Source of the DNA: Escherichia phage vB_EcoS-12210III
Reading direction: 5' to 3' (one strand)
Length of the DNA stretch: 44,219 nucleotides
Sequence record: MK907227.1
Shown here: piece by piece, positions 1,923-44,219 of the stretch
Position numbering within the stretch: position 1 is the stretch's first letter
Layout: every line of letters starts with the position of its first letter
The notes under the pieces: generated by a model
The model's database searches: none
The model's input: the letters and a program-made list of their open reading frames with translations, nothing else
Told to the model about the DNA's origin: nothing
Translations under genes and position numbers: made by a program

Positions 1923-1997
1923 GCTCTGCTAGCTCAATAGGATAGTAGCAACGACCTTCTAAGTCGTAGGTTACTGGTTCGAATCCAGTGCGGAGCG
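1923..1997 (+). tRNA. tRNA-Arg, anticodon UCU (reads AGA); CCA encoded at 1998-2000
   Basis: Manual fold: acceptor GCTCTGC/GCGGAGC (one G-U pair), U8, D-arm with GG, anticodon stem ACGAC/GTCGT, loop CTTCTAA (U33, anticodon TCT), 5-nt variable loop, T-arm ACTGG-TTCGAAT-CCAGT, discriminator G. Confidence 0.7.
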
Positions 1998-22968: not shown

Positions 22969-23012
22969 ATAGTATCGCATCCTTGCGATCAGTGTTTAGC
23001 AATTAGTGCTAT
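22969..23012 (-). promoter_or_regulatory. Conserved phage promoter unit (minus): palindrome at 22996-23012, 22-nt spacer, -10 TACTAT (22969-22974), leader CATCGAAACGA
   Basis: Reverse complement matches the family consensus; overlaps the 3' end of the Rha-like gene. Confidence 0.5.
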
Positions 23013-23656
23013 TTCTTTTCCAGCAGCAGCTTAATGTCAATTCCGAGATTATTCTCAATCAATCCAGTCAGCGCATCATTCTTTTCTTTAAGGGCGAAGC
23101 ATTGGGCTTCATACTTAAATCTTTCCTCCATCTCATCAGAACGACTAGCCCAACACTGGCGAGCCTCACAAGCCAGCATGTCTAGTTTTTCATCGGTACT
23201 CTTATCCATGAGTAAGATCTCATTTATTCTTTGCTCTGCAACAATGCGCTGGCTCAGGTGTGCATTCTGCGCATTAGCCACACCAAGCATCATTCGAACC
23301 TCTTTAAGTTCATTAATGCTTACCATCTGGCTGATTACTTCTGCTTGTTTTTTAACTAACGCCTCAAGCTCATGAAGTCGACGGATAACTCTGTGACGAA
23401 GAATGACGCTGTAGCCAGTTATTAGCGTTTCTGTAAGTTCCTTGTTAAGTAAAATCTCTGATGTATAGCCTAAATTATCTGTAAGTACTTGATAATCCTC
23501 ACTCCTTAAGTATGAGGAGTTGTTATAATGTATCAAATCATTGATCATTTCCTTGGCATCACGAATTACCTTATTATGTTCTTTACCAGTTAACCCCGCG
23601 ATCTCTTTGGTGCTCATCATGGCAACGTTGGTATCTTTAAATGGCTTGATATTCAT
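23009..23656 (-). CDS. Rha-family phage regulatory protein (putative)
   Basis: N-terminal motif STKEIAGLTGKEHNKVIRDAKEMI resembles the Rha signature (GK.H..V.RD); start taken at ATG 23656. Confidence 0.5.
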   Translation of the reverse strand: MNIKPFKDTNVAMMSTKEIAGLTGKEHNKVIRDAKEMINDLIHYNNSSYLRSEDYQVLTDNLGYTSEILLNKELTETLITGYSVILRHRVIRRLHELEALVKKQAEVISQMVSINELKEVRMMLGVANAQNAHLSQRIVAEQRINEILLMDKSTDEKLDMLACEARQCWASRSDEMEERFKYEAQCFALKEKNDALTGLIENNLGIDIKLLLEKK

Positions 23657-23657
23657 T

Positions 23658-23987
23658 TTAACCGCCAAAAATTTTATTAATCAATTTATCAGCATCATCC
23701 TGAGACAGCTTCAATCTCTCTATTGGCTCTGGTTTTTTGCCTGTAACATTCCATCCTGTACATTTTCTTTTTATGTCAATACGCCTTGAGACTGAGTAGT
23801 AAGAGGCAACTTCAACCCTTTCAACAACCCCATAAGATTCAAGTTCAAGCAAGGTCCTCCTTGCGTTAGCCCTTTGGATTCCTGTCAATCTAGATACATC
23901 ATCCGCGGTAGGGCTGTACCTATCGCATCCTTCAGTGCAGTGTAGTATGCAATCAATTACCTTTTTTCTTGTGCTTGTCATTCTCAT
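23658..23987 (-). CDS. Winged-helix DNA-binding transcriptional regulator (putative)
   Basis: 109 aa; HTH-like segment (DVSRLTGIQRANARRTLLELESYGVVERVE); strong RBS GGGAGG; leader contains a palindromic half-site array. Confidence 0.5.
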   Translation of the reverse strand: MRMTSTRKKVIDCILHCTEGCDRYSPTADDVSRLTGIQRANARRTLLELESYGVVERVEVASYYSVSRRIDIKRKCTGWNVTGKKPEPIERLKLSQDDADKLINKIFGG

Positions 23988-24035
23988 CTTTCATCCTCCC
24001 GTTATGTATGCGATGAATATACTCGTTAACTCATA

Positions 24036-24101
24036 TGTAGTCAATATTGCTGACTACATTTTATTGCAGTCACTTCAAATGACTACATTTAATTGTAGTC
24101 A
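24036..24101. promoter_or_regulatory. Array of five 8-bp half-sites in alternating orientation: TGTAGTCA (24036), TGACTACA (24051), TGCAGTCA (24066), TGACTACA (24080), TGTAGTCA (24094)
   Basis: Read from sequence; spacing 15, 15, 14, 14 bp; lies between the -10 of the regulator gene promoter and its start codon. Confidence 0.6.
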
Positions 24102-24152
24102 CTTAAACAAAATTGCCATCCAAAAAGTAAAGTAAAAACCTCGCTCCCTGAG

Positions 24153-24196
24153 TTAATAAATGAAATTATCAGAATGTCTTTAGCAATTAGTGCTAT
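24153..24196 (-). promoter_or_regulatory. Conserved phage promoter unit (minus): palindrome 24180-24196, 22-nt spacer, -10 TATTAA (24153-24158)
   Basis: Reverse complement matches the family; drives the winged-helix regulator gene. Confidence 0.5.
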
Positions 24197-24318
24197 TTAT
24201 CGCCAATTTCACCACAAATCACGGTTACACGTAACCGATGTAACTCGATGTATGCAATCTCATCCGCGAAAAATGATATACGCGCTGTTACGCCAATTTA
24301 CGCATTAGTTACATTAAA

Positions 24319-24388
24319 ATATCTATATATATCAACCTTTTACTCTTATTATTATTATTATATATATTACTGTGTATATCATGTAACT
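24319..24388. repeat. AT-rich ~70-bp repeat, copy A (ATATCTATATATATCAACCTTTTACT...(TTA)n...TATATAT...TACTGTGTATA)
   Basis: 26-bp exact match plus microsatellite-containing tail shared with copy B at 41355-41425. Confidence 0.8.
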
Positions 24389-24549
24389 ACTTCTATAGAG
24401 TGTTCCGGTTATAATTTTAATATCATGTGGATTTATACAGTATTGCGCGACAGCTATACCAATGCACCATTAGCAATAAATGATATACACGATATACACG
24501 ATGGTTACATTGAGCTATGGCTGGGCTGAGATGCCAAGAAACGTAACTA

Positions 24550-24879
24550 GTGGTAATACCTACACGGGATTACAAAGGATTCACGCGTAAGTTTAAATCA
24601 ACGATTGGTGAAACCAATTGGACTGGCTACAGTGCCGAATATATAGTTAACTCATCGAAAGCAAACAACCAGAGAGATGCAGAAATGACCTACTACATTA
24701 TCAAAGAGAAAAACAACGCACTGTTCGGCGACTGCTATTTTGGTGGCCCAGCTGGATACACCACGAATAAGAGCGAGGCTGACAGATTCGAGACTAAAGA
24801 GGAAGCTAGGGATGTACTGAACGGATACTTCACTGAAGAAGATTTGAAGTCTGTTAAAGTAGTTAAGGTTAAGGAGTAA
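24550..24879 (+). CDS. Hypothetical protein (start uncertain; internal ATG at 24676)
   Basis: ORF from the track; no clear RBS at either candidate start. Confidence 0.4.
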   Translation: MVIPTRDYKGFTRKFKSTIGETNWTGYSAEYIVNSSKANNQRDAEMTYYIIKEKNNALFGDCYFGGPAGYTTNKSEADRFETKEEARDVLNGYFTEEDLKSVKVVKVKE

Positions 24880-25081: not shown

Positions 25082-26043
25082 CTTTCAGAGTTTACACACG
25101 AGAGGAACTAAGCAATGAGTCTTACCACTCCGAGACTGAACACATCTCCGGTAGCTCACTTGTCGAGATTATCCAAGGATCACCAGCAAAGTGGAAATTC
25201 AAGCAGCGTAACAGCGATAGCAAGGCACTTAAATTCGGAACGCTTAGTCACACGTACATCCTGGAAGGTGACATGTTTGATAAAGAATACCTTCGAGCTA
25301 CAGACCTTGACGCGATTGAAGGCTTAATTACAAGCCAGGCAGGTTTAGCTTCAGCACTTAAAAAAGTTGGCGTGGCTGGCACTTCCGGGAAGGGTTATAG
25401 CGAGCTCGTAGAGATGATGTATCGATCTGGTGAGGACTGGCCCGTTAAATGGCTAATTGAGCAGCTGGAAAGCGCTCAGGCGCTCGTGGAGGGTAAGGAG
25501 CTGGTTAGCGCAGCAGACTACGACAAAGTGGTAGCGATGCGCGAGGTTCTTTGCAATATTCCAGCATATAATGCAATCGTGAACAGCGAAACGGCGCAGA
25601 AAGAGCTATCAATCTTTGGTGAGATTCTCGGTGTCGGAGTTAAGATTCGAATAGACCACGTTGATGTTGTTGATGGTGTAGTTCGGATCACAGATTATAA
25701 AACTACCGCAGACGCAAGCCCGGAAGGATTTGGTAAGTCGGCGTTTAATCACGGCTACCTTGCAAAAATGGCGCTTCAGAGAGATCTGTTTGTGAAGGCA
25801 TTTAACGAGAAGCGAAAGGTTGTTGTAGGGTTGTTGGCTCAGGAGAAGGTGGAGCCATACTTACCAATGCTGTACACCCTAACTGACGAGCAACTTCGAA
25901 TTGGTCGCCTTCAGTACCTTGAGGCGCTCGCCACTTACAAGAAGTGCAAGGAGCTGGATATCTGGCCTGGGTACTCTAATGGCATTACAGAGCAAGAGTT
26001 GATGATTCCTGACTGGGCAATTAAGCAGTATAAAGAAATTTAA
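25078..26043 (+). CDS. PD-(D/E)XK family exonuclease (putative recombination exonuclease)
   Basis: 321 aa; motifs consistent with the PD-(D/E)XK fold (..IDHVD.. and ..ITDYKT..); precedes the ERF-like and SSB genes. Confidence 0.6.
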   Translation: MTFRVYTREELSNESYHSETEHISGSSLVEIIQGSPAKWKFKQRNSDSKALKFGTLSHTYILEGDMFDKEYLRATDLDAIEGLITSQAGLASALKKVGVAGTSGKGYSELVEMMYRSGEDWPVKWLIEQLESAQALVEGKELVSAADYDKVVAMREVLCNIPAYNAIVNSETAQKELSIFGEILGVGVKIRIDHVDVVDGVVRITDYKTTADASPEGFGKSAFNHGYLAKMALQRDLFVKAFNEKRKVVVGLLAQEKVEPYLPMLYTLTDEQLRIGRLQYLEALATYKKCKELDIWPGYSNGITEQELMIPDWAIKQYKEI

Positions 26044-26087
26044 ATAGCACGAATTGCTAAATAAAAAATTAAAAGGTGGAGTATGAT
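26044..26087 (+). promoter_or_regulatory. Conserved phage promoter unit: palindrome ATAGCACGAATTGCTAA (26044-26060), 22-nt spacer, TATGAT (26082-26087)
   Basis: Family member; overlaps the GTG-initiated extension of the track ORF. Confidence 0.5.
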
Positions 26088-26809: not shown

Positions 26810-27235
26810 ATGCACGTAATTACTGGTCAGATTCGACGCGCCCCATTCACTAAGGAAGGTCAGAATGCTAATGGTAGCTGGAAAATGTTCGCAGTTGATT
26901 TGAGTGAGCGATATAAGGATAAAGATGGGCAGAATCAGTATAGTAACTATCGCGCCGTCTTCTTCGCTAAAGAATCTATGTTAGATTGGTACAATGATGC
27001 ATTTCAAGAAGGTAAAGTTGTTAGTGTTAGCGCTGAAAGTTTGGCTGTAGATGTTAGGGATAAAGATGGTAAGACTTACGTAACCATTAACATGAACAAT
27101 CCGCGACTTGAGTTTAGTCAGCGTGGTGATTCAGCACCGCAGCAACAGCAACATCAACCTCAGCGGCAACAGCAACCTCAGCGGCAACAGCAACCTCAGC
27201 AGCAACAGAACTTCGAGGACGACATCCCATTCTGA
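26810..27235 (+). CDS. ssb: Single-stranded DNA-binding protein
   Basis: 141 aa; C-terminal acidic tail ending DDIPF (SSB C-terminal tip) preceded by a Gln/Pro-rich linker. Confidence 0.8.
   Translation: MHVITGQIRRAPFTKEGQNANGSWKMFAVDLSERYKDKDGQNQYSNYRAVFFAKESMLDWYNDAFQEGKVVSVSAESLAVDVRDKDGKTYVTINMNNPRLEFSQRGDSAPQQQQHQPQRQQQPQRQQQPQQQQNFEDDIPF
27161..27200 (+). repeat. Tandem 18-bp repeat (CAGCGGCAACAGCAACCT x2 plus partial) encoding the SSB Q/P-rich linker
   Basis: Read from sequence. Confidence 0.8.
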
Positions 27236-29725: not shown

Positions 29726-30658
29726 TTAGTCTAGTAATTCGCTTGCCTTGTATATGCGCTTTCTTATTCCTGACTTGAAAAAATTATCATCATTTGGCAT
29801 TACAACATCAAGATTGCGATCATCAGCAACGGCGAGTAAATCAAAATCGTGGCGAGTACAAGCCACTCTCAGCTTGTGGTTCCTAAGCGCATAAGCAACC
29901 ATCTCCATATTGTAGCTAGAGTGGCAAACAAGTACACAGCGGTTACCAGTAGCAAGATGAACACGAATACCATCAATCCAATTATCCACAAGATAAGCGT
30001 ACTCATCACTTTTAAAGGCACCAATAACAGCGACAGATTGGCGAGTGTAATCTTTTGCAGCATAACTAACATCTCCATCTTCATTTATAAACATTACATT
30101 GCACATTTCTTCCGATATGCCGTCACTATAAGCCATAAAACACGGTATTGCGTGTATTATTTCGCCTGATTTTGTTCTGCCAACATCAAAGCCAAACTCG
30201 CTATAGATACCCTCATATATGCTGAGTGGAGTTGATTCTACCCTCTCCGTCCTTTCCATTATCTCTAAGCATCTTTCATGGTCAATCTGAGCGCCCATTT
30301 TGTATGGTGATGTACGAGATGCTCTTTTGTTTGCTTTTGATATAACCTCTACTGGAACGAGATTTAGCCAATCACCAAGCGTATCTATTGTTTCACTATA
30401 ACTCATTCCGGAACACTTCATGACCCAACCAACACCAGAATCATTGCCGCACTGGTTGCATATTGCTGCTCCATTTCCCTTTTCTTGACCTAACTCATCA
30501 GTGAATCTAAACCTATCACGACCTCCACAATTCGGGCATGGCCCATGCTTCTTGCTAAGATTTTCTCTGGTCCATCCCAAATGAGACAAGTAGAACTCAC
30601 CCCACATCCCTTTCATTTTAGCTATCACTTCATTTTTGTCATGATAATTCATATACAC
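29726..30658 (-). CDS. DNA primase (zinc-ribbon plus TOPRIM-like)
   Basis: 310 aa; N-terminal CPNCGGRDRFRF zinc-ribbon motif and a second Cys pair (CNQCG); acidic motifs downstream. Confidence 0.65.
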   Translation of the reverse strand: MYMNYHDKNEVIAKMKGMWGEFYLSHLGWTRENLSKKHGPCPNCGGRDRFRFTDELGQEKGNGAAICNQCGNDSGVGWVMKCSGMSYSETIDTLGDWLNLVPVEVISKANKRASRTSPYKMGAQIDHERCLEIMERTERVESTPLSIYEGIYSEFGFDVGRTKSGEIIHAIPCFMAYSDGISEEMCNVMFINEDGDVSYAAKDYTRQSVAVIGAFKSDEYAYLVDNWIDGIRVHLATGNRCVLVCHSSYNMEMVAYALRNHKLRVACTRHDFDLLAVADDRNLDVVMPNDDNFFKSGIRKRIYKASELLD

Positions 30659-30678: not shown

Positions 30679-30723
30679 ACTATACACAATGCATAGCGCC
30701 ACTGTTTATCAATTAGTGCTATT
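30679..30723 (-). promoter_or_regulatory. Conserved phage promoter unit (minus): palindrome 30707-30723, 22-nt spacer, -10 TATAGT (30679-30684)
   Basis: Family member upstream of the primase gene. Confidence 0.5.
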
Positions 30724-31201: not shown

Positions 31202-31302
31202 TTCATTACCTCAATAGCATTTTTTGTTAAAAGTCATACTGATTTGATGGTATTATTGTACTCAATTAAACGCTACAAGACAATTTTTATAGGAATTTAG
31301 AT

Positions 31303-33297: not shown

Positions 33298-33713
33298 ACA
33301 TTACAGACAAATTTGATTACATTGAGTTTTACTCTGGACCGGTTAAGTCGTGTCCGAAAGAGGATGACGAACAAATCTTTTGCTCTGATTGGGTTAAGTA
33401 TAACTATCCAGAGATGGTATTTTTCCACTGCGTGAATGAGGGCAAAAAAACCATTGGTCAAGCAAGAAAGGACCAGGCTAAAGGGCTTCTCAAAGGCGTA
33501 TCAGACTGTATGTTTCTTATTCCCGAATCTATCAGAGGAAAGTACCCTTTCGGAGCCATAGAGCTAAAGAGGGCAGGAAAAACCCAGGCTAGTCCAGTCA
33601 GTAACGAGCAGAAGTCCTTCCTTAAAAGCGTAAGAGAGTCAGGCGGCTTCGCTGCCGTGGCGTACGGTCGCGAGGGTTTTCTTGCTGCATTTAGAGAAAT
33701 GATTTCAAAATAG
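33294..33713 (+). CDS. VRR-NUC-like nuclease (putative)
   Basis: 139 aa; C-terminal region with D...ELK-type motif (GAIELKRAG) and overall VRR-NUC-like pattern; ATGA overlap with the helicase gene. Confidence 0.45.
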   Translation: MNITDKFDYIEFYSGPVKSCPKEDDEQIFCSDWVKYNYPEMVFFHCVNEGKKTIGQARKDQAKGLLKGVSDCMFLIPESIRGKYPFGAIELKRAGKTQASPVSNEQKSFLKSVRESGGFAAVAYGREGFLAAFREMISK

Positions 33714-33753
33714 CACTAATTGCTAAAGATGAATCGGTGGGGTGGTGTATTAT
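33710..33753 (+). promoter_or_regulatory. Conserved phage promoter unit: palindrome ATAGCACTAATTGCTAA (33710-33726), 22-nt spacer, TATTAT (33748-33753), leader CATCGAAACGA
   Basis: Family member. Confidence 0.5.
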
Positions 33754-36648: not shown

Positions 36649-37134
36649 ATGAAGCAGAAGCTGCTAATTACCGCGGCTACGGCTGCGGCGATATACATCG
36701 CAGCTCCGCTTATTGAGCTCGTGGAAGGTGTGGAGAACAAGCCGTACATGGACATTGCCGGAATCCCTACAGTTTGTTCCGGTATTACTGGTCCTGATGT
36801 TGTTTGGGGTAAGACTTACAGCAATAGGGAGTGCCGGAACCTGCTGGAGAAACATATCCAGATTCATGCTAAGTATGTTCAGGATGCAGTTACCTACCCA
36901 ATCGCACCGCAGACAAGGGGGGCGTTAATCAGCTTTAGCTATAATGTTGGCGGCTCAGCGATGAGGAAGTCCACGGCTGTAAGGCTAATTAACCAGGGTA
37001 AGATTGAGCAAGGTTGCAAGGCTCTCGGGATGTGGAACAAGGCTCGAGTTAACGGGAAACTGAAGGTAGTTAAAGGCCTTGTTAACAGGAGAAATGAGGA
37101 GATTAAGCTATGCTTAAGTGGATTGCAGCGTTAG
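36649..37134 (+). CDS. SAR endolysin (T4 lysozyme-like muramidase with N-terminal signal-anchor-release segment)
   Basis: N-terminal weakly hydrophobic Ala/Gly-rich segment (LLITAATAAAIYIAAPLIELVEG) followed by an E-x8-D-x5-T catalytic triad pattern (E...D...T in ELVEGVENKPYMDIAGIPT). Confidence 0.8.
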   Translation: MKQKLLITAATAAAIYIAAPLIELVEGVENKPYMDIAGIPTVCSGITGPDVVWGKTYSNRECRNLLEKHIQIHAKYVQDAVTYPIAPQTRGALISFSYNVGGSAMRKSTAVRLINQGKIEQGCKALGMWNKARVNGKLKVVKGLVNRRNEEIKLCLSGLQR

Positions 37135-37637: not shown

Positions 37638-37681
37638 ACTATGCTCTTTTTGTTTTTCTTTTATTTAGCAATTTGTGCTAT
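37638..37681 (-). promoter_or_regulatory. Conserved phage promoter unit (minus): palindrome 37665-37681, 22-nt spacer, -10 CATAGT (37638-37643)
   Basis: Family member. Confidence 0.45.
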
Positions 37682-37758
37682 CAGTACACGCCAAGATAAA
37701 TAGCTACGTTATCCATGATTGCAACAGCAGTCAGCATACCAGCGAAGAACTTAACCAT
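37681..37758 (-). CDS. Small hydrophobic peptide (25 aa; MVKFFAGMLTAVAIMDNVAIYLGVY)
   Basis: ATG downstream of a promoter unit and CATCGAAACGA leader; coding status uncertain. Confidence 0.2.
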   Translation of the reverse strand: MVKFFAGMLTAVAIMDNVAIYLGVY

Positions 37759-38178: not shown

Positions 38179-39762
38179 TCACCCCAATAGTCGTGGATTA
38201 ATGTAAACTTTATCACCAATCAGGCACGTGTAGTTTTTCTCATCAAGCATTGGCAGCAAGTGGTCTTTAATCTTCGTCATTACTCCCGCTTGAGCCTCGA
38301 ACGGCTTAACCTTGCGAGCCGCTTCATATAGCGAACGAATACCTACTACTCCTTTCCCGTTTTTGCCTTGCTTAATCAGGATATCAATCAGCTTATTCAT
38401 CTCTGCATTGTCGCCAGCGTGACCCGCGGCGTTAGCGGATGACAAATAAGTCTTGCTAAGTTCCTGGAACATAATTACAGCTTCCTGCATTGTATCAAGC
38501 TCAATTTCTCTCGACTTCTGAGGGCTACCGCCATTTGGGTTGAACCAGTTACGCACAGTGTGAAGAACCGCCGCAATCCTGATTGCCTGCTTATCGAACT
38601 TACCCAACGCGCCTCGCAACATTGTGTGTGAATACTTCCCGCCGTCAGCAAGGTGCGGTTCCATCTCCTGACGCGCGCGGTTGAGATATTTCATTGCTGA
38701 ATTACTAACTGTCAACTTAACTTCTTGTTCATTCATGATTTCATGAACCAGACGGAAGTAGTTAGCCTTAAGCTCACCATCTATCGGTTCGTAAGTTGAC
38801 TCACCATTTTCATCAACAAACACACGCTCGCCCAGGAATGACTTTTCACGTACAAGCAGGAAACGTTCAGATACACCGATACCACGCGCGCCAGCGTTCA
38901 TGATCGCATTGATTGTTTCATCCTGTGCAATTACAGAGATGCAACCCATAGCAACAAAGCTCATATTGTTTTCTGCGTTAGCACGCGCAATTGACACGTT
39001 ACCAGCATCCCAGGCCTTCAGCACAAGCTCGCTGTTCGTTTTCTTCGAACCATCACCATAGGTCATACCAAGCAGTGAGTTGACGCTGGTTGCTTCATCT
39101 GATATTACAGCAAAGCTGCCCTGGCGGTTGTTTATTCGCGCAAGTCCTTCCGGTGTGGTATCTGACACAGGGAAAACGATATCACATAGTTTCTCGAGTT
39201 TTTCCTCTAGTTCCTCTTTCTCCTCAAAAAGTGAAGCCATCTCTGACGGAGATTTTTCCTGCTTCATCTCTTTGGATAATTCAGATAGTTTTGCCATAAT
39301 TTTCTTGCGCTCACGCTTTCTCACTTTATTTAGTCGCTCAGTCTCAGCAATCATTGGAGCAATTGAAAGTGAGTTGATTGCTGATTTACCCGTCGATGGT
39401 GGCTGACTCGTTACGACGTACAGCGAAGTCGGTTGCTGCGTTCCGTGATACTCAACAGTAAATCGACCCAGCATTGCAGCGGAAATACACCCCAGGAAGT
39501 GCATGTAAGCTGACGACTCAGGGAACTGAACAGAACGGGCAATATTAGCTGACAGCTTACCAACAACATCAATGTCATTACCTAGTGAGATTACTGGATA
39601 CTTGTCATTAGCTGCATCAATCTCGACTGGTGCTTTCCAGAATGATTGAGACTGGCGATAGCCATTAGCATTAATGGCGACGCGCAGGGGCGGGAGGTTT
39701 TCTGCGGCAGCAATTGCCATAACCTGTTCAACAGATAGTTTATCTTCGTTGAAATCGAACAT
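38179..39762 (-). CDS. P-loop NTPase, DUF3987-like (putative replication/primase-associated ATPase)
   Basis: 527 aa; Walker A-like SQPPSTGKS and Walker B-like AVISDEAT; its N- and C-terminal segments are paralogous to the protein at 42248..42670. Confidence 0.6.
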   Translation of the reverse strand: MFDFNEDKLSVEQVMAIAAAENLPPLRVAINANGYRQSQSFWKAPVEIDAANDKYPVISLGNDIDVVGKLSANIARSVQFPESSAYMHFLGCISAAMLGRFTVEYHGTQQPTSLYVVTSQPPSTGKSAINSLSIAPMIAETERLNKVRKRERKKIMAKLSELSKEMKQEKSPSEMASLFEEKEELEEKLEKLCDIVFPVSDTTPEGLARINNRQGSFAVISDEATSVNSLLGMTYGDGSKKTNSELVLKAWDAGNVSIARANAENNMSFVAMGCISVIAQDETINAIMNAGARGIGVSERFLLVREKSFLGERVFVDENGESTYEPIDGELKANYFRLVHEIMNEQEVKLTVSNSAMKYLNRARQEMEPHLADGGKYSHTMLRGALGKFDKQAIRIAAVLHTVRNWFNPNGGSPQKSREIELDTMQEAVIMFQELSKTYLSSANAAGHAGDNAEMNKLIDILIKQGKNGKGVVGIRSLYEAARKVKPFEAQAGVMTKIKDHLLPMLDEKNYTCLIGDKVYINPRLLG

Positions 39763-40377: not shown

Positions 40378-40421
40378 ATAATACCGCATCCTTGCGATTT
40401 CGTTTTAGCAATTCGTGCTAT
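40378..40421 (-). promoter_or_regulatory. Conserved phage promoter unit (minus): palindrome 40405-40421, 22-nt spacer, -10 TATTAT (40378-40383), leader CATCGAAACGG
   Basis: Family member. Confidence 0.5.
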
Positions 40422-40569
40422 TTCGTGCTTTTTCTATCGCCTTGAGCATAATCTCGTGAGAATCCAGTAGGTCCTCATTAAACCAGTCACCGCAAGGCCA
40501 ACCCTTGCCGCTGTAGGCACTTATGACCTCAAGATCGAAATAATTTATCTCAGATGGTAATAGCATCAT
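40405..40569 (-). CDS. Small hypothetical protein (54 aa)
   Basis: ATG overlapping the upstream stop; 3' end overlaps the promoter palindrome. Confidence 0.3.
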   Translation of the reverse strand: MMLLPSEINYFDLEVISAYSGKGWPCGDWFNEDLLDSHEIMLKAIEKARNSTNC

Positions 40570-40995: not shown

Positions 40996-41022
40996 TTCTA
41001 TCTCCTCGTTTTTGATGAGCTA

Positions 41023-41067
41023 ACTATAGCCTCGCTAACTCATAATGTCTTTAGCAAAAAGCGCTAT
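41023..41067 (-). promoter_or_regulatory. Conserved phage promoter unit (minus): palindrome variant 41051-41067, 23-nt spacer, -10 TATAGT (41023-41028)
   Basis: Family member. Confidence 0.45.
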
Positions 41068-41354
41068 TCGTCAGATTTATGCATTGTTGCAGATATTGCA
41101 ATGATTCACATGATTATTGCACATACAGCAATATTGCTTCTGATGCAATGATGTTTTTGATTGTTGCGAAAAGTGAAATGAAGTGGTGGGTGAGTGAATG
41201 AAAGATGGATTGACTACCATACAAGTTGATTTTCATTCTTGGTGAGCCATTCTTGAGATATACGAGTAACCATCGTATACCAAGTGTCGTCACAAAAGTT
41301 AGTTACCACTAACCTACGTTTTTTACGCGAGATATACGCACGATATACAATATA

Positions 41355-41425
41355 ATATCTATATATATCAACCTTTTACTTTATTATTATTATTATTATT
41401 ATATATATGTATACTGTGTATACCG
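41355..41425. repeat. AT-rich ~70-bp repeat, copy B (with (TTA)6 microsatellite), inside a 540-bp non-coding AT-rich region
   Basis: Matches copy A at 24319-24388. Confidence 0.8.
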
Positions 41426-41699
41426 ATAATTGATTGGATAATTGATATGTTCCGCGCAGATATTCTGACACTTGTCAGAATGGGATGACATTGTAGGAAT
41501 AAAAAGGCGCATATATAGGAAAGCACTCCCAAAAACGGTACACAGGGGATACGGCACGTTTACAACCAGTGCTGACGCTGCCTTGGAGGCCGAAAAAACG
41601 TATCCGCGATGGAATAGACATAAAAATACGTTGACCGACACGTAAACAAGTGGCAAGATGGCAATCACTGAAACGAAGTAAACGAAACGAGGTATCAAC

Positions 41700-42248
41700 A
41701 TGCAGAAAGTAACACTTGGCGAAGTTATCCGTGAGATGGTGCGTAACGCAATGGCGTCTGAGAACGGCGAGTTCAAAGTTCCGGTAAGCCAGATATTCAA
41801 ACTTGTTCGCGGCAAGCCATATCCAGAAATGGAGTATGACGAAGAGACTGACGAGATCCTAAACCTGGCAGACAGGGCGATGCCTGAACTCAAGAACTCG
41901 TACATCTACAATACCGTGTCGCGAATGACTGAACTACGAGACGCCAACAAGCGAGCGCGCTACAAGTTCATCTGGATTGACGATGAAGGCGAGCAAACCA
42001 GGCCGGGTAATTTCGACGGCGATGGTGCTGATAAATACCTGGTAATTTATATTGAGAACGGCTCTCACTGGACTGGCAATCGTGAGAAGAAGAAGCAGGA
42101 AGCAGAGAAAGAGGTCGCCATCATTGAAAGGTTCAAGGCTCGGTTACTCAAGATCACACCTAACGTTATCGACCTGCAAGGCGAGCAGAAAGAGGGCGCT
42201 CTCATTGCCCTGGCCCGTTACTATGAAATGATTAAGGAGACTAACTGA
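41700..42248 (+). CDS. Hypothetical protein (182 aa)
   Basis: ORF from the track; leader contains AAACGAAACGAG. Confidence 0.55.
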   Translation: MQKVTLGEVIREMVRNAMASENGEFKVPVSQIFKLVRGKPYPEMEYDEETDEILNLADRAMPELKNSYIYNTVSRMTELRDANKRARYKFIWIDDEGEQTRPGNFDGDGADKYLVIYIENGSHWTGNREKKKQEAEKEVAIIERFKARLLKITPNVIDLQGEQKEGALIALARYYEMIKETN

Positions 42249-42670
42249 TGTTTAATTTCGATGAAGAGAAACTGACGGACGAGCAGATTATGAATATTGC
42301 TATCCAAGATGGGCTGCCACCGCTACTGGTTGCAATCAATGCTAACGGGTATCGACAAACGCAAGGCTTCTGGGGTCATCCCGATGCGTCAGAAGTATAC
42401 AAAGATGAAGCGCTTGGCGTTCTGATTAATATTATTAGGAAAATGGCAAAGAACGGCAAGGGCGTGCTTGGTATCAGGTCTTTATACGAAGGCGCTCGCA
42501 GGGCGAAAAGAATTAAGGGTGGCAATGACAGGCTAATGGCGCGCATTAAGGATGAGTTTATCCCAGCCCTAGAGAGTATGAATCTAGCTTGCCTCATTGG
42601 AGATAAGATTTATGTTCATCCGGCAATCCTCGAGGAGAGCTGGGAGCCTAACTTCAAAGTATACGAATGA
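42248..42670 (+). CDS. Mini-paralog of the DUF3987-like NTPase termini (140 aa; lacks the ATPase core)
   Basis: N-terminus MFNFDEEKLTDEQIMNIA...LPPLLVAINANGYRQTQGFW matches the NTPase N-terminus; C-terminus KNGKGVLGIRSLYEGAR...CLIGDKIYVHP matches the NTPase C-terminus. Confidence 0.6.
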   Translation: MFNFDEEKLTDEQIMNIAIQDGLPPLLVAINANGYRQTQGFWGHPDASEVYKDEALGVLINIIRKMAKNGKGVLGIRSLYEGARRAKRIKGGNDRLMARIKDEFIPALESMNLACLIGDKIYVHPAILEESWEPNFKVYE

Positions 42671-42777: not shown

Positions 42778-42993
42778 ATGCTTATAAAATGTGTGTATGT
42801 AAGGCAAGCCAATCACCACAACCTTTCAGTTGTAAATGGCGGGATATACGTGGCTAAGCCGATACCTTGTTTTAATGGCTCATACTACATCAAGGTTGAT
42901 GGTAATGGGTACATAGTTAAGACGATAGGTGAATCCCTTATGATAAAAAGCCTTGGCGTCATAATGGCTAAGTTCGAAATAGTTCGCAAATAG
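42778..42993 (+). CDS. Hypothetical protein (71 aa)
   Basis: ORF from the track. Confidence 0.4.
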   Translation: MLIKCVYVRQANHHNLSVVNGGIYVAKPIPCFNGSYYIKVDGNGYIVKTIGESLMIKSLGVIMAKFEIVRK

Positions 42994-43033
42994 CACGAAT
43001 TGCTAAACAATGGATCGGGTAGTCAGCTATGAT
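42990..43033 (+). promoter_or_regulatory. Conserved phage promoter unit: palindrome ATAGCACGAATTGCTAA (42990-43006), 22-nt spacer, TATGAT (43028-43033), leader CATCGAAAACAAAGAGG
   Basis: Family member. Confidence 0.5.
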
Positions 43034-43695: not shown

Positions 43696-43952
43696 GTAAG
43701 TACAATCGTGAAATTATTGGCATTGATGGCACGGTAACAACAGTGGATGTTTATCGCGTTCTTGATGCGTTTGGTGTATCTGACCCAGCAACGCAGCATG
43801 CAATAAAGAAGATGCTTTGCACTGGTCTGCGTGGTCACAAAGATTACCTTACTGATCTTAATGACTCGATTGATTCATTGCGGAGGGCTAAAGAGCTTTA
43901 CGGGCAGAAGATGATTCATGAATCGTCTAAATCAATTCAGGTTGGTAAATAG
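43692..43952 (+). CDS. Hypothetical protein (86 aa)
   Basis: ORF from the track. Confidence 0.45.
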   Translation: MSKYNREIIGIDGTVTTVDVYRVLDAFGVSDPATQHAIKKMLCTGLRGHKDYLTDLNDSIDSLRRAKELYGQKMIHESSKSIQVGK

Positions 43953-43992
43953 CACTTTTTGCCTAACCAGCTACGGCGGGTTTTGTTATAGT
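43949..43992 (+). promoter_or_regulatory. Conserved phage promoter unit: palindrome ATAGCACTTTTTGCCTA (43949-43965), 22-nt spacer, TATAGT (43987-43992)
   Basis: Family member upstream of the gene that wraps across the window ends. Confidence 0.5.
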
Positions 43993-44020: not shown

Positions 44021-44219
44021 ATGATTACTATTAACCTGTCAGACAAGCAAGCAGCAGAACTGAAGTCGATGATTAATTCATTCATGCCAACACGAAGTGA
44101 TAGCCAGCGCAAAGCGGTAGATGAGATTCGCGCACAGATTAATAATCAGCAATTCGACGTCAGTGACTTCGAATCATCACGCCAGTACGAGGCGCTTATC
44201 GTTAATGCCGCATACCTCA
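44021..44219 (+). CDS. 5' portion of the hypothetical early protein that continues at 1..156 across the wrap point
   Basis: ATG 44021 with RBS GAGAGGA; reading frame continuous through the 127-bp overlap. Confidence 0.5.
   Translation, partial: MITINLSDKQAAELKSMINSFMPTRSDSQRKAVDEIRAQINNQQFDVSDFESSRQYEALIVNAAYL

Follow-up and report, generated by a model that had tools for sequence, protein, structure and literature searches.

The DNA analysed here, one strand of 44,219 nucleotides from Escherichia phage vB_EcoS-12210III (record MK907227.1, called the window below), holds two copies of a short AT-rich element. The anatomy of these copies, A and B, together with their conservation among related phages suggests that they could be twin replication-origin-like modules of the Drexlerviridae, a reading to which we give about an even chance of being right. 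The preliminary description of this DNA had proposed four roles for the element, namely replication origin, recombination hot spot, packaging signal and nucleoid-protein binding site. The first of these is favoured by duplex instability, iteron-like repeats, conservation and a link to an MCM-like winged-helix helicase, whereas a packaging signal is unsupported; hot-spot and nucleoid-protein roles may exist beside an origin but are not required. No replication origin was identified according to the papers on SU57 in 2020 (PMC7718038) and on TLS in 2024 (PMC11447400), and none of the other T1-like papers searched mentions these elements, the Rtp genome paper lying outside that search.

Anatomy of the two copies

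The window is a complete Rtp/T1-like coliphage genome, classified as Veterinaerplatzvirus vv12210I in the Braunvirinae, Drexlerviridae, and 42 GenBank records of Escherichia phage vB_EcoS-xxxx (MK9072xx) match it at 100% identity. Bases 1-127 are repeated exactly at 44093-44219, and this terminal duplication of 127 bp is best read as the assembler overlap of a circular contig, so that the true unit length is 44,092 bp. A tRNA gene lies at 1923-1997 (+), upstream of the terminase genes, and SU57 annotates a tRNA-Arg at the equivalent place.

The claim that an AT-rich (TTA)n element occurs twice, 17 kb apart, is confirmed by both exact matching and alignment. The core ATATCTATATATATCAACCTTTTACT is found exactly at 24319-24344 (copy A) and at 41355-41380 (copy B), as part of the longest exact word common to the two, which has 27 nt (24318-24344 and 41354-41380). 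No other dispersed exact repeat in the genome reaches this length, the maximum in 30 dinucleotide shuffles being 14-18 nt, and the repeat is real and far beyond chance. Local alignment extends the similarity to about 100 nt (24288-24379 with 41323-41423, both on the + strand). The only exact repeat in the genome that exceeds the A/B word has 28 nt; it comes from the SSB gene, whose C-terminal part contains coding repeats rich in CAG/CAA, arranged in tandem with units of 18-24 nt, at 27139-27204 (+).

The microsatellite that follows the core does differ in length between the copies, as first described, with five TTA units in copy A (24346-24360, + strand, followed by TATATAT at 24361-24367), while the six units given for copy B turn out to be seven (41381-41401, +, followed by TATATAT at 41402-41408). 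At the orthologous copy A site IME542 has (TTA)6 and a shorter TA run, and copy B of Rtp has only 4 ATT units.

Both copies do lie in AT-rich, gene-free DNA, in stretches of about 700 bp (23988-24684 for A and 40996-41699 for B) whose GC content is 35-37% versus 44% for the genome, with leftward genes on one side and rightward genes on the other. Their placement at junctions of divergent transcription units holds for both copies in the window, but it is not universal, as copy A of TLS follows a co-directional tail gene. Rightward of copy A the module of recE, erf and ssb follows after two small ORFs, and the conserved non-coding block of locus A, defined by its conservation in relatives, spans 24215-24510 (+) upstream of this module. 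Leftward of copy A is a pair of genes for an HTH protein and a Rha-type protein, not found in Rtp. Between these HTH/Rha-like genes (23009-23987, -) and the leftward promoter motif there are inverted repeats of the type TGTAGTCA-N8-TGACTACA at 24036-24110, which look like the operators of an inserted regulatory cassette. At the other locus, a DUF7174 protein and then a 140-aa protein are encoded rightward of copy B, and small ORFs followed by a 527-aa DUF3987 helicase leftward of it.

The two copies also stand out by the low stability of the duplex. By nearest-neighbour dG the least stable 60-bp window of the genome is in copy B (41349-41409, 90% A+T, z = 5.6) and the second least stable is in copy A (24309-24369, 89% A+T, z = 5.2); outside A and B the next reaches only z = 3.1. 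We regard both as candidate DNA-unwinding elements.

The cores are flanked by short repeats. GATATAC has 12 copies in the genome, seven of which fall in the two regions where 0.38 would be expected (p = 3e-11 in a k-mer test of ±200 bp around the cores of the window), and the extended motif GATATACRC has five matches, versus 0.47 expected, all within the two regions. At locus A the left iteron-like site, ATGATATAC at 24273-24281 (+), points inward and makes a perfect inverted repeat of 9 bp with 24374-24382. The latter belongs to a right composite site, GTATATCATGTAACTA at 24374-24389 (-), which contains GATATAC and GTTACAT in inverted orientation and mirrors both ATGATATAC and TAGTTACAT, the pairing partners being TAGTTACAT at 24306-24314 and ATGTAACTA at 24381-24389. 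Farther to the right, GATATACAC GATATACAC GATGGTTACAT at 24482-24510 (+) is a tandem iteron-like pair (24482-24490 and 24491-24499) followed by a GTTACAT site. A tandem GATATACAC repeat had been reported after copy A and it does exist, at 24482-24499 rather than at 24484-24501. Copy A of the window has one inward GATATAC site on each side in addition to this same-direction pair, which lies at +143 and +152 from the core centre in the window as well as in SU57, Rtp, IME542 and MSK; the whole repeat layout of copy A is identical across these four relatives. The left flank of copy B (41257-41348, +) carries GATATAC at 41257, 41331 and 41342, with TACGC recurring every 11 bp between 41324 and 41345, and its right flank (41409-41423, no strand assigned) has two palindromic GTATAC hexamers that are 9 bp apart.

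Motif scanning also places an exact IHF consensus, TATCAACCTTTTA (WATCAANNNNTTR), inside each core, at 24330-24342 and at 41366-41378 (both +), and these are two of only four exact WATCAANNNNTTR matches genome-wide. Such a predicted site is present in 7 of the 8 Braunvirinae copies scanned (window, SU57, Rtp and IME542) and missing from copy B of Rtp. In the other subfamilies the scan found no IHF consensus in the element copies, and neither DnaA boxes nor GATC clusters were found in any copy scanned.

Conservation across the family

We compared nine Drexlerviridae from five lineages, these being the window, SU57, MSK, Rtp, IME542, e4/1c, T1, TLS and the Webervirus NJR15, along with two outgroups, SB28 and KpV2811, which are not Drexlerviridae and have the helicase, the primase and the recE module in common with them. 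Locus searches with RecE and DUF7174 gave 6 and 2 loci; whole genomes from an annotated phage collection were used. The phage phiJLA23 was left out on account of the many runs of N in its record.

In 9 of 9 Drexlerviridae the nearest-neighbour scan ranks precisely A and B as the two 60-bp windows of lowest duplex stability, with z between 4.5 and 6.0 and the next window at 3.8 or less. In every one of these genomes an A-type element is upstream of the recE module and a B-type element is in the divergent early region. The outgroups each have a single stability outlier (z of about 4.8), located in a divergent region directly upstream of the helicase operon. The preliminary description had allowed for the element being absent from all related genomes, in which case it would more likely be a neutral duplication; it is present at both loci in all nine Drexlerviridae examined, and this family-wide conservation refutes that fallback.

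The two loci are not conserved to the same degree. The block of locus A is 92-96% identical in SU57, MSK, Rtp and IME542 (82% over 60% of its length in e4/1c), and for its core (24296-24392) the identity rises to 98-99% in MSK, Rtp and IME542. In the same comparison the neighbouring genes reach 79-89% for recE, 84-92% for erf and 84-90% for the helicase. The B locus diverges faster among the relatives than A.

Beyond the closest relatives the sequence of the element changes and does so at both loci together. Alignment of A with B within a genome scores 56 in T1, 60 in TLS and 90 in NJR15, compared to at most 52 against the elements of other subfamilies, so that in these three phages the copies are closer to each other than to the orthologues of other subfamilies and the two co-vary by lineage. 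In NJR15 the copies have an identical 43-nt core in common that is unrelated to the core of the window. Additionally, the recE-erf-ssb module of this Klebsiella phage (28967-34499) has been transposed and inverted, together with the AT-rich element, relative to the T1-like phages of E. coli. Copy A was inverted along with the recE module in Webervirus, which means that the element travels with the recombination module.

The repeats around the cores are also specific to the lineage. GTAAGAT has 13 of its 17 genome copies in NJR15 within ±200 bp of the cores (p = 3e-25), and by the same ±200 bp measure the counts are 4 of 8 for TGTTCAC in TLS and 4 of 5 for GTGTAAC in T1, and near the single cores of the outgroups 4 of 5 for TTGGGGA in KpV2811 and 4 of 9 for GGGCATA in SB28. 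Inward tandem repeat pairs spaced 9-10 bp apart are found on both sides of the core in TLS, in copy A of NJR15 and in KpV2811. The layout is irregular in T1 and in some B copies, and copy B of MSK has no match to the motif used.

These comparisons bear on the possibility of a duplication that is neutral or selfish, or of a recombination hot spot, in which the copies stay alike only through gene conversion by RecE/Erf. RecE and Erf are indeed encoded by the phage, microsatellites are prone to slippage, and the two copies of one genome resemble each other more closely than they do the orthologues of other subfamilies. However, both loci are retained in synteny in five lineages, each with its own system of flanking repeats, and copy A is better conserved than the adjacent genes. 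The cores of SU57 differ at separate positions, which indicates that homogenisation is not continuous, and recombination between direct copies 17 kb apart would be expected to delete replication genes. We consider this explanation very improbable.

Another proposal is that the element is a gene for a small RNA or for a small protein, the latter being the 93-codon ORF at 24248-24529. The frame is open across copy A in the window and in Rtp, but it is broken or shifted in SU57, IME542, e4/1c, T1, TLS and NJR15, and the coding reading was rejected as no open frame across the element is conserved among the relatives compared. The RNA reading fared no better, with fold z-scores of -0.95 to +0.10 over both strands, which are not significant, and no Rfam match at the element; the Rfam search returned only the tRNA at 1923-1997. 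We find this proposal scarcely credible.

Nothing in 5,426 complete E. coli genomes and 72,556 plasmids matches the block of copy A, and hence there is no evidence from these of satellites or plasmids borrowing the element. A scan of IMG/VR with the generic pattern ATTATTATTATATATA gave, among the matches listed, only unrelated AT-rich contigs, mostly of giant viruses.

Putative promoters and projected packaging ends beside the copies

The main rival to an origin is an upstream control region for immediate-early transcription at each locus. Promoters of the host RNAP, firing rightward from A into the recE operon and from B into the early arm, would be activated or timed by a curved AT-rich complex bound by a factor such as IHF, and a phage regulator would use the flanking repeats as its operators. 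At locus A the promoter scan finds a rightward sigma-70-like promoter, TGGACT-17-TATAGT, at 24619-24647 (+), followed by a conserved leader TTAACTCATCGAAAGC. At locus B a promoter-like site, TTGACC-17-CAAGAT at 41631-41659 (+), lies 41 nt before the ATG at 41700; it was read from the sequence and scores below the threshold of the promoter scan. Both sites are about 250 bp to the right of the core, and they correspond to P51 and P01 of TLS, respectively; the list of consensus sigma-70 promoters for that phage has just three entries, these two among them. This counts in favor of a control region and against the origin reading, as does the orientation of the element towards the operon downstream of it, which is kept even after the Webervirus inversion. 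The exact IHF consensus in the Braunvirinae cores and the two predicted promoters annotated on copy A in the EC3a record are also consistent with control of transcription.

Despite this, several features do not fit a control region. The core is about 250 bp from the promoters and this is too far for an UP element. A sigma-70 promoter inside the element was considered and rejected: the sole internal pair of hexamers, TTTACT-18-TATATT, is found in copy A only and spans the microsatellite, so that its spacer is 18 bp in copy A, at least 21 bp in copy B and variable among the relatives, and a spacer of 16-18 bp is conserved neither between the copies nor among relatives. A third divergent early region, at 31202-31302 between the helicase gene and the primase and HTH genes, has no such element, and in the outgroups the single element is at the helicase operon only. 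Taking both sides together we think it unlikely that control of early transcription explains the elements, and we rate the promoter reading, like the RNA and coding readings, as weaker than that of twin origins.

Each locus is bounded on its left by a leftward copy of a promoter-associated 21-nt repeat, AAATAGCAC-N5-TGCTAAA, found by repeat search at 24177-24198 (-) and 41048-41068 (-). The window has about 17 copies of this repeat, always oriented with transcription, for example at 294-314, 1126-1146, 26041-26061, 33707-33727, 42987-43007 and 43946-43966 on the + strand and, beyond the two boundary copies (24177-24198 and 41048-41068), at 22990-23014, 30695-30723, 37654-37682 and 40402-40423 on the - strand. 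About 20 nt past each repeat there is TATAGTTA and a conserved leader CATCGAAACGA. The palindromic form TAGCA-N5-TGCTA suggests that a dimeric factor acts at the phage promoters. The repeat is family-wide and its function is an open question according to the TLS paper (PMC11447400).

The next rival in line concerns packaging, as copy B is close to the place where relatives of the window appear to start packaging. The elements could be accessory packaging sites, with B the right half of pac, its DNA bent by the small terminase subunit or IHF, and A a secondary or vestigial site. The end of MSK was placed by PhageTerm at position 36,862, forward, with p = 1.6e-9 (PMC8421802), and the end of SU57, position 1 of its record, was defined by a coverage step (PMC7718038). 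Projected on the window these ends fall at about 41217-41235, 120-140 bp to the left of core B, and the records of T1, TLS and Rtp start about 215 bp to the left of their own copy B. Clusters of repeats with an IHF site are also what is found in cosB of lambda and pac of P1.

The projected ends lie outside the repeat, however, which puts the pac cut beside copy B and not in the element that A and B have in common. Immediately to the left of the cut is a zone of TTGCAAT/ATTGTTGC repeats at 41075-41170 that is unique to B (together with the projected end the feature spans 41075-41235, +), and the small terminase subunit may bind there. The T1 record begins in locus B, inside the zone equivalent to the TTGCAAT zone, with a 2.8-kb terminal repeat, and it lists a single terminal repeat; T1 is classically described as having one pac fragment with limited permutation. 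Copy A is the better conserved of the two but lacks a pac-like flank, and the element of the outgroups is at the helicase operon, far from the terminase genes. With nothing at A comparable to the ends beside B, the packaging signal suggested in the preliminary description is not borne out for the repeat, and we consider an accessory packaging role of the elements improbable.

A candidate initiator and known origin systems

If A and B are origins they would need an initiator, and the most likely one is the DUF3987 helicase (527 aa, 38179-39762, -). It models as MCM-like with a C-terminal winged helix (cf. PMC4889955). Single-sequence and profile searches of the helicase against PDB chains gave no match, so that the fold comparison alone is informative, and there is no sequence similarity between the helicase of the window and the SaPI proteins. 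The C-terminal domain diverges faster than the ATPase core where the repeats of the lineages differ, with identities of 42% versus 73% for NJR15 and 60% versus 78% for TLS, and it is 92-99% identical among phages of the GATATAC class. Counting against the origin reading, the putative recognition helix of the winged helix is not notably basic and the fold is a generic one.

The 140-aa protein encoded by the second gene to the right of copy B (42248-42670, +) is a paralogue of the helicase that consists of the N-terminus and the C-terminal winged helix without the ATPase core. BLASTP aligns it to helicase residues 1-73 at 49% identity and to residues 439-526 at 44%, and its model has winged-helix topology. 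It is found only in Braunvirinae and Rogunavirinae, is a remnant in Rtp and is absent from T1, TLS and NJR15.

The closest comparison is to the SaPI origins, which have an AT-rich centre with element-specific iterons of 5-6 nt on both sides in opposite orientation (PMC9371898). The SaPI helicase is self-loading and recognises the iterons through a C-terminal winged helix (PMC9371898). The phages resemble this design in having an easily melted AT-rich centre, A and B being the least stable windows in 9 of 9 Drexlerviridae, and in the modelled C-terminal winged helix of the candidate initiator-helicase of the window. There are differences as well. The repeats in the window are longer, at 7-9 nt, are less regular in some copies and are predicted sites only. 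The window has two copies per genome, and neither is directly downstream of the helicase gene, as the SaPI origin is of rep; the helicase gene belongs to the leftward operon headed by copy B, which lies 1.3-3 kb upstream of the gene, and copy A is elsewhere and does not adjoin it. In SB28 and KpV2811 the element is directly upstream of the helicase operon.

Other systems can be compared as well. P4 has two cis-acting sites, ori and crr, several kb apart, which have the repeat motif of the initiator in common, and its alpha protein combines a primase and an SF3 helicase in one polypeptide. The window resembles P4 in its GATATAC clusters at two loci 17 kb apart and in a primase of the P4-alpha type, which carries the Zn-ribbon PF08273. 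In contrast to P4, primase (29726-30658) and helicase are encoded as two proteins, the latter being MCM-like and not SF3. SPP1, a pac-type siphophage of Bacillus, has two dispersed origin modules, oriL and oriR, with initiator boxes beside an AT-rich stretch. It differs in that its initiator belongs to the G38P family and one of its origins is inside a gene. The lambda origin is a single site inside the O gene, with iterons beside an AT-rich region, and is helped in its activation by nearby transcription. An arrangement of the lambda type was sought in TLS by its authors and none was found (PMC11447400). It is the SaPI-like design, combined with two copies that recall ori/crr of P4 and oriL/oriR of SPP1, that leads us to read A and B as twin origin-like modules.

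On this basis a mechanism can be proposed. The core of about 60 bp, with 85-92% A+T including (TTA)n(TA)n, would act as a DNA-unwinding element, and the short lineage-specific repeats around it (here GATATAC and GTTACAT), often arranged as inward tandem pairs, would bind a phage-encoded initiator. This would probably be the MCM-like helicase, which would use its C-terminal winged helix for binding and, like the SaPI Rep proteins, would load itself where the core has melted. Priming would then fall to the P4-alpha-type primase and elongation to host Pol III. The outward early promoters about 250 bp away could aid opening, as could, in Braunvirinae, the predicted IHF site within the core. Of this picture the analysis shows the anatomy, the conservation and synteny, the co-variation of the two copies by lineage and the fold of the protein, while binding of a protein, melting of the DNA and the start of replication are proposed.

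Looking at what speaks against twin origins, AT-rich DNA with clustered protein sites would also fit promoter-operator regions and pac sites. The less regular layout of the repeats in T1 and in some B copies, and the distance of both copies from the helicase gene, are further points against it. GC skew was also considered as an origin indicator and rejected. It changes sign at A, at B and at 31.2 kb, and as it only follows gene orientation it is uninformative on origins.

A more specific version is that A and B are one cooperating two-site origin system and not two independent origins; as a joint reading of the parts that follow we consider this quite unlikely. The MCM-like helicase, attached to both sites by its winged helix, would bring them together through looping or handcuffing, by analogy to ori and crr of P4. 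The 140-aa paralogue would be a dominant-negative or licensing factor acting on the same or on a second class of repeat (GATATAC versus GTTACAT). Replication would in this way be timed and also coupled to the nearby pac cut and to the formation of concatemers driven by RecE/Erf.

T1 is one of the seven classical T phages, its relatives account for more than 900 records in the phage collection searched, and T1-like phages are common contaminants of laboratories and fermenters as well as candidates for phage therapy. For these phages each genome now has two short, bounded candidate origin modules with repeat motifs and a candidate initiator that can be named, which makes the open question of their origin directly testable. 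For annotation the rule that follows is to seek two minima of duplex stability. If the reading is right, the pairing of an MCM-like helicase with an iteron/AT-rich origin, so far characterised in staphylococcal islands, would be extended to a large family of virulent enterobacterial phages.
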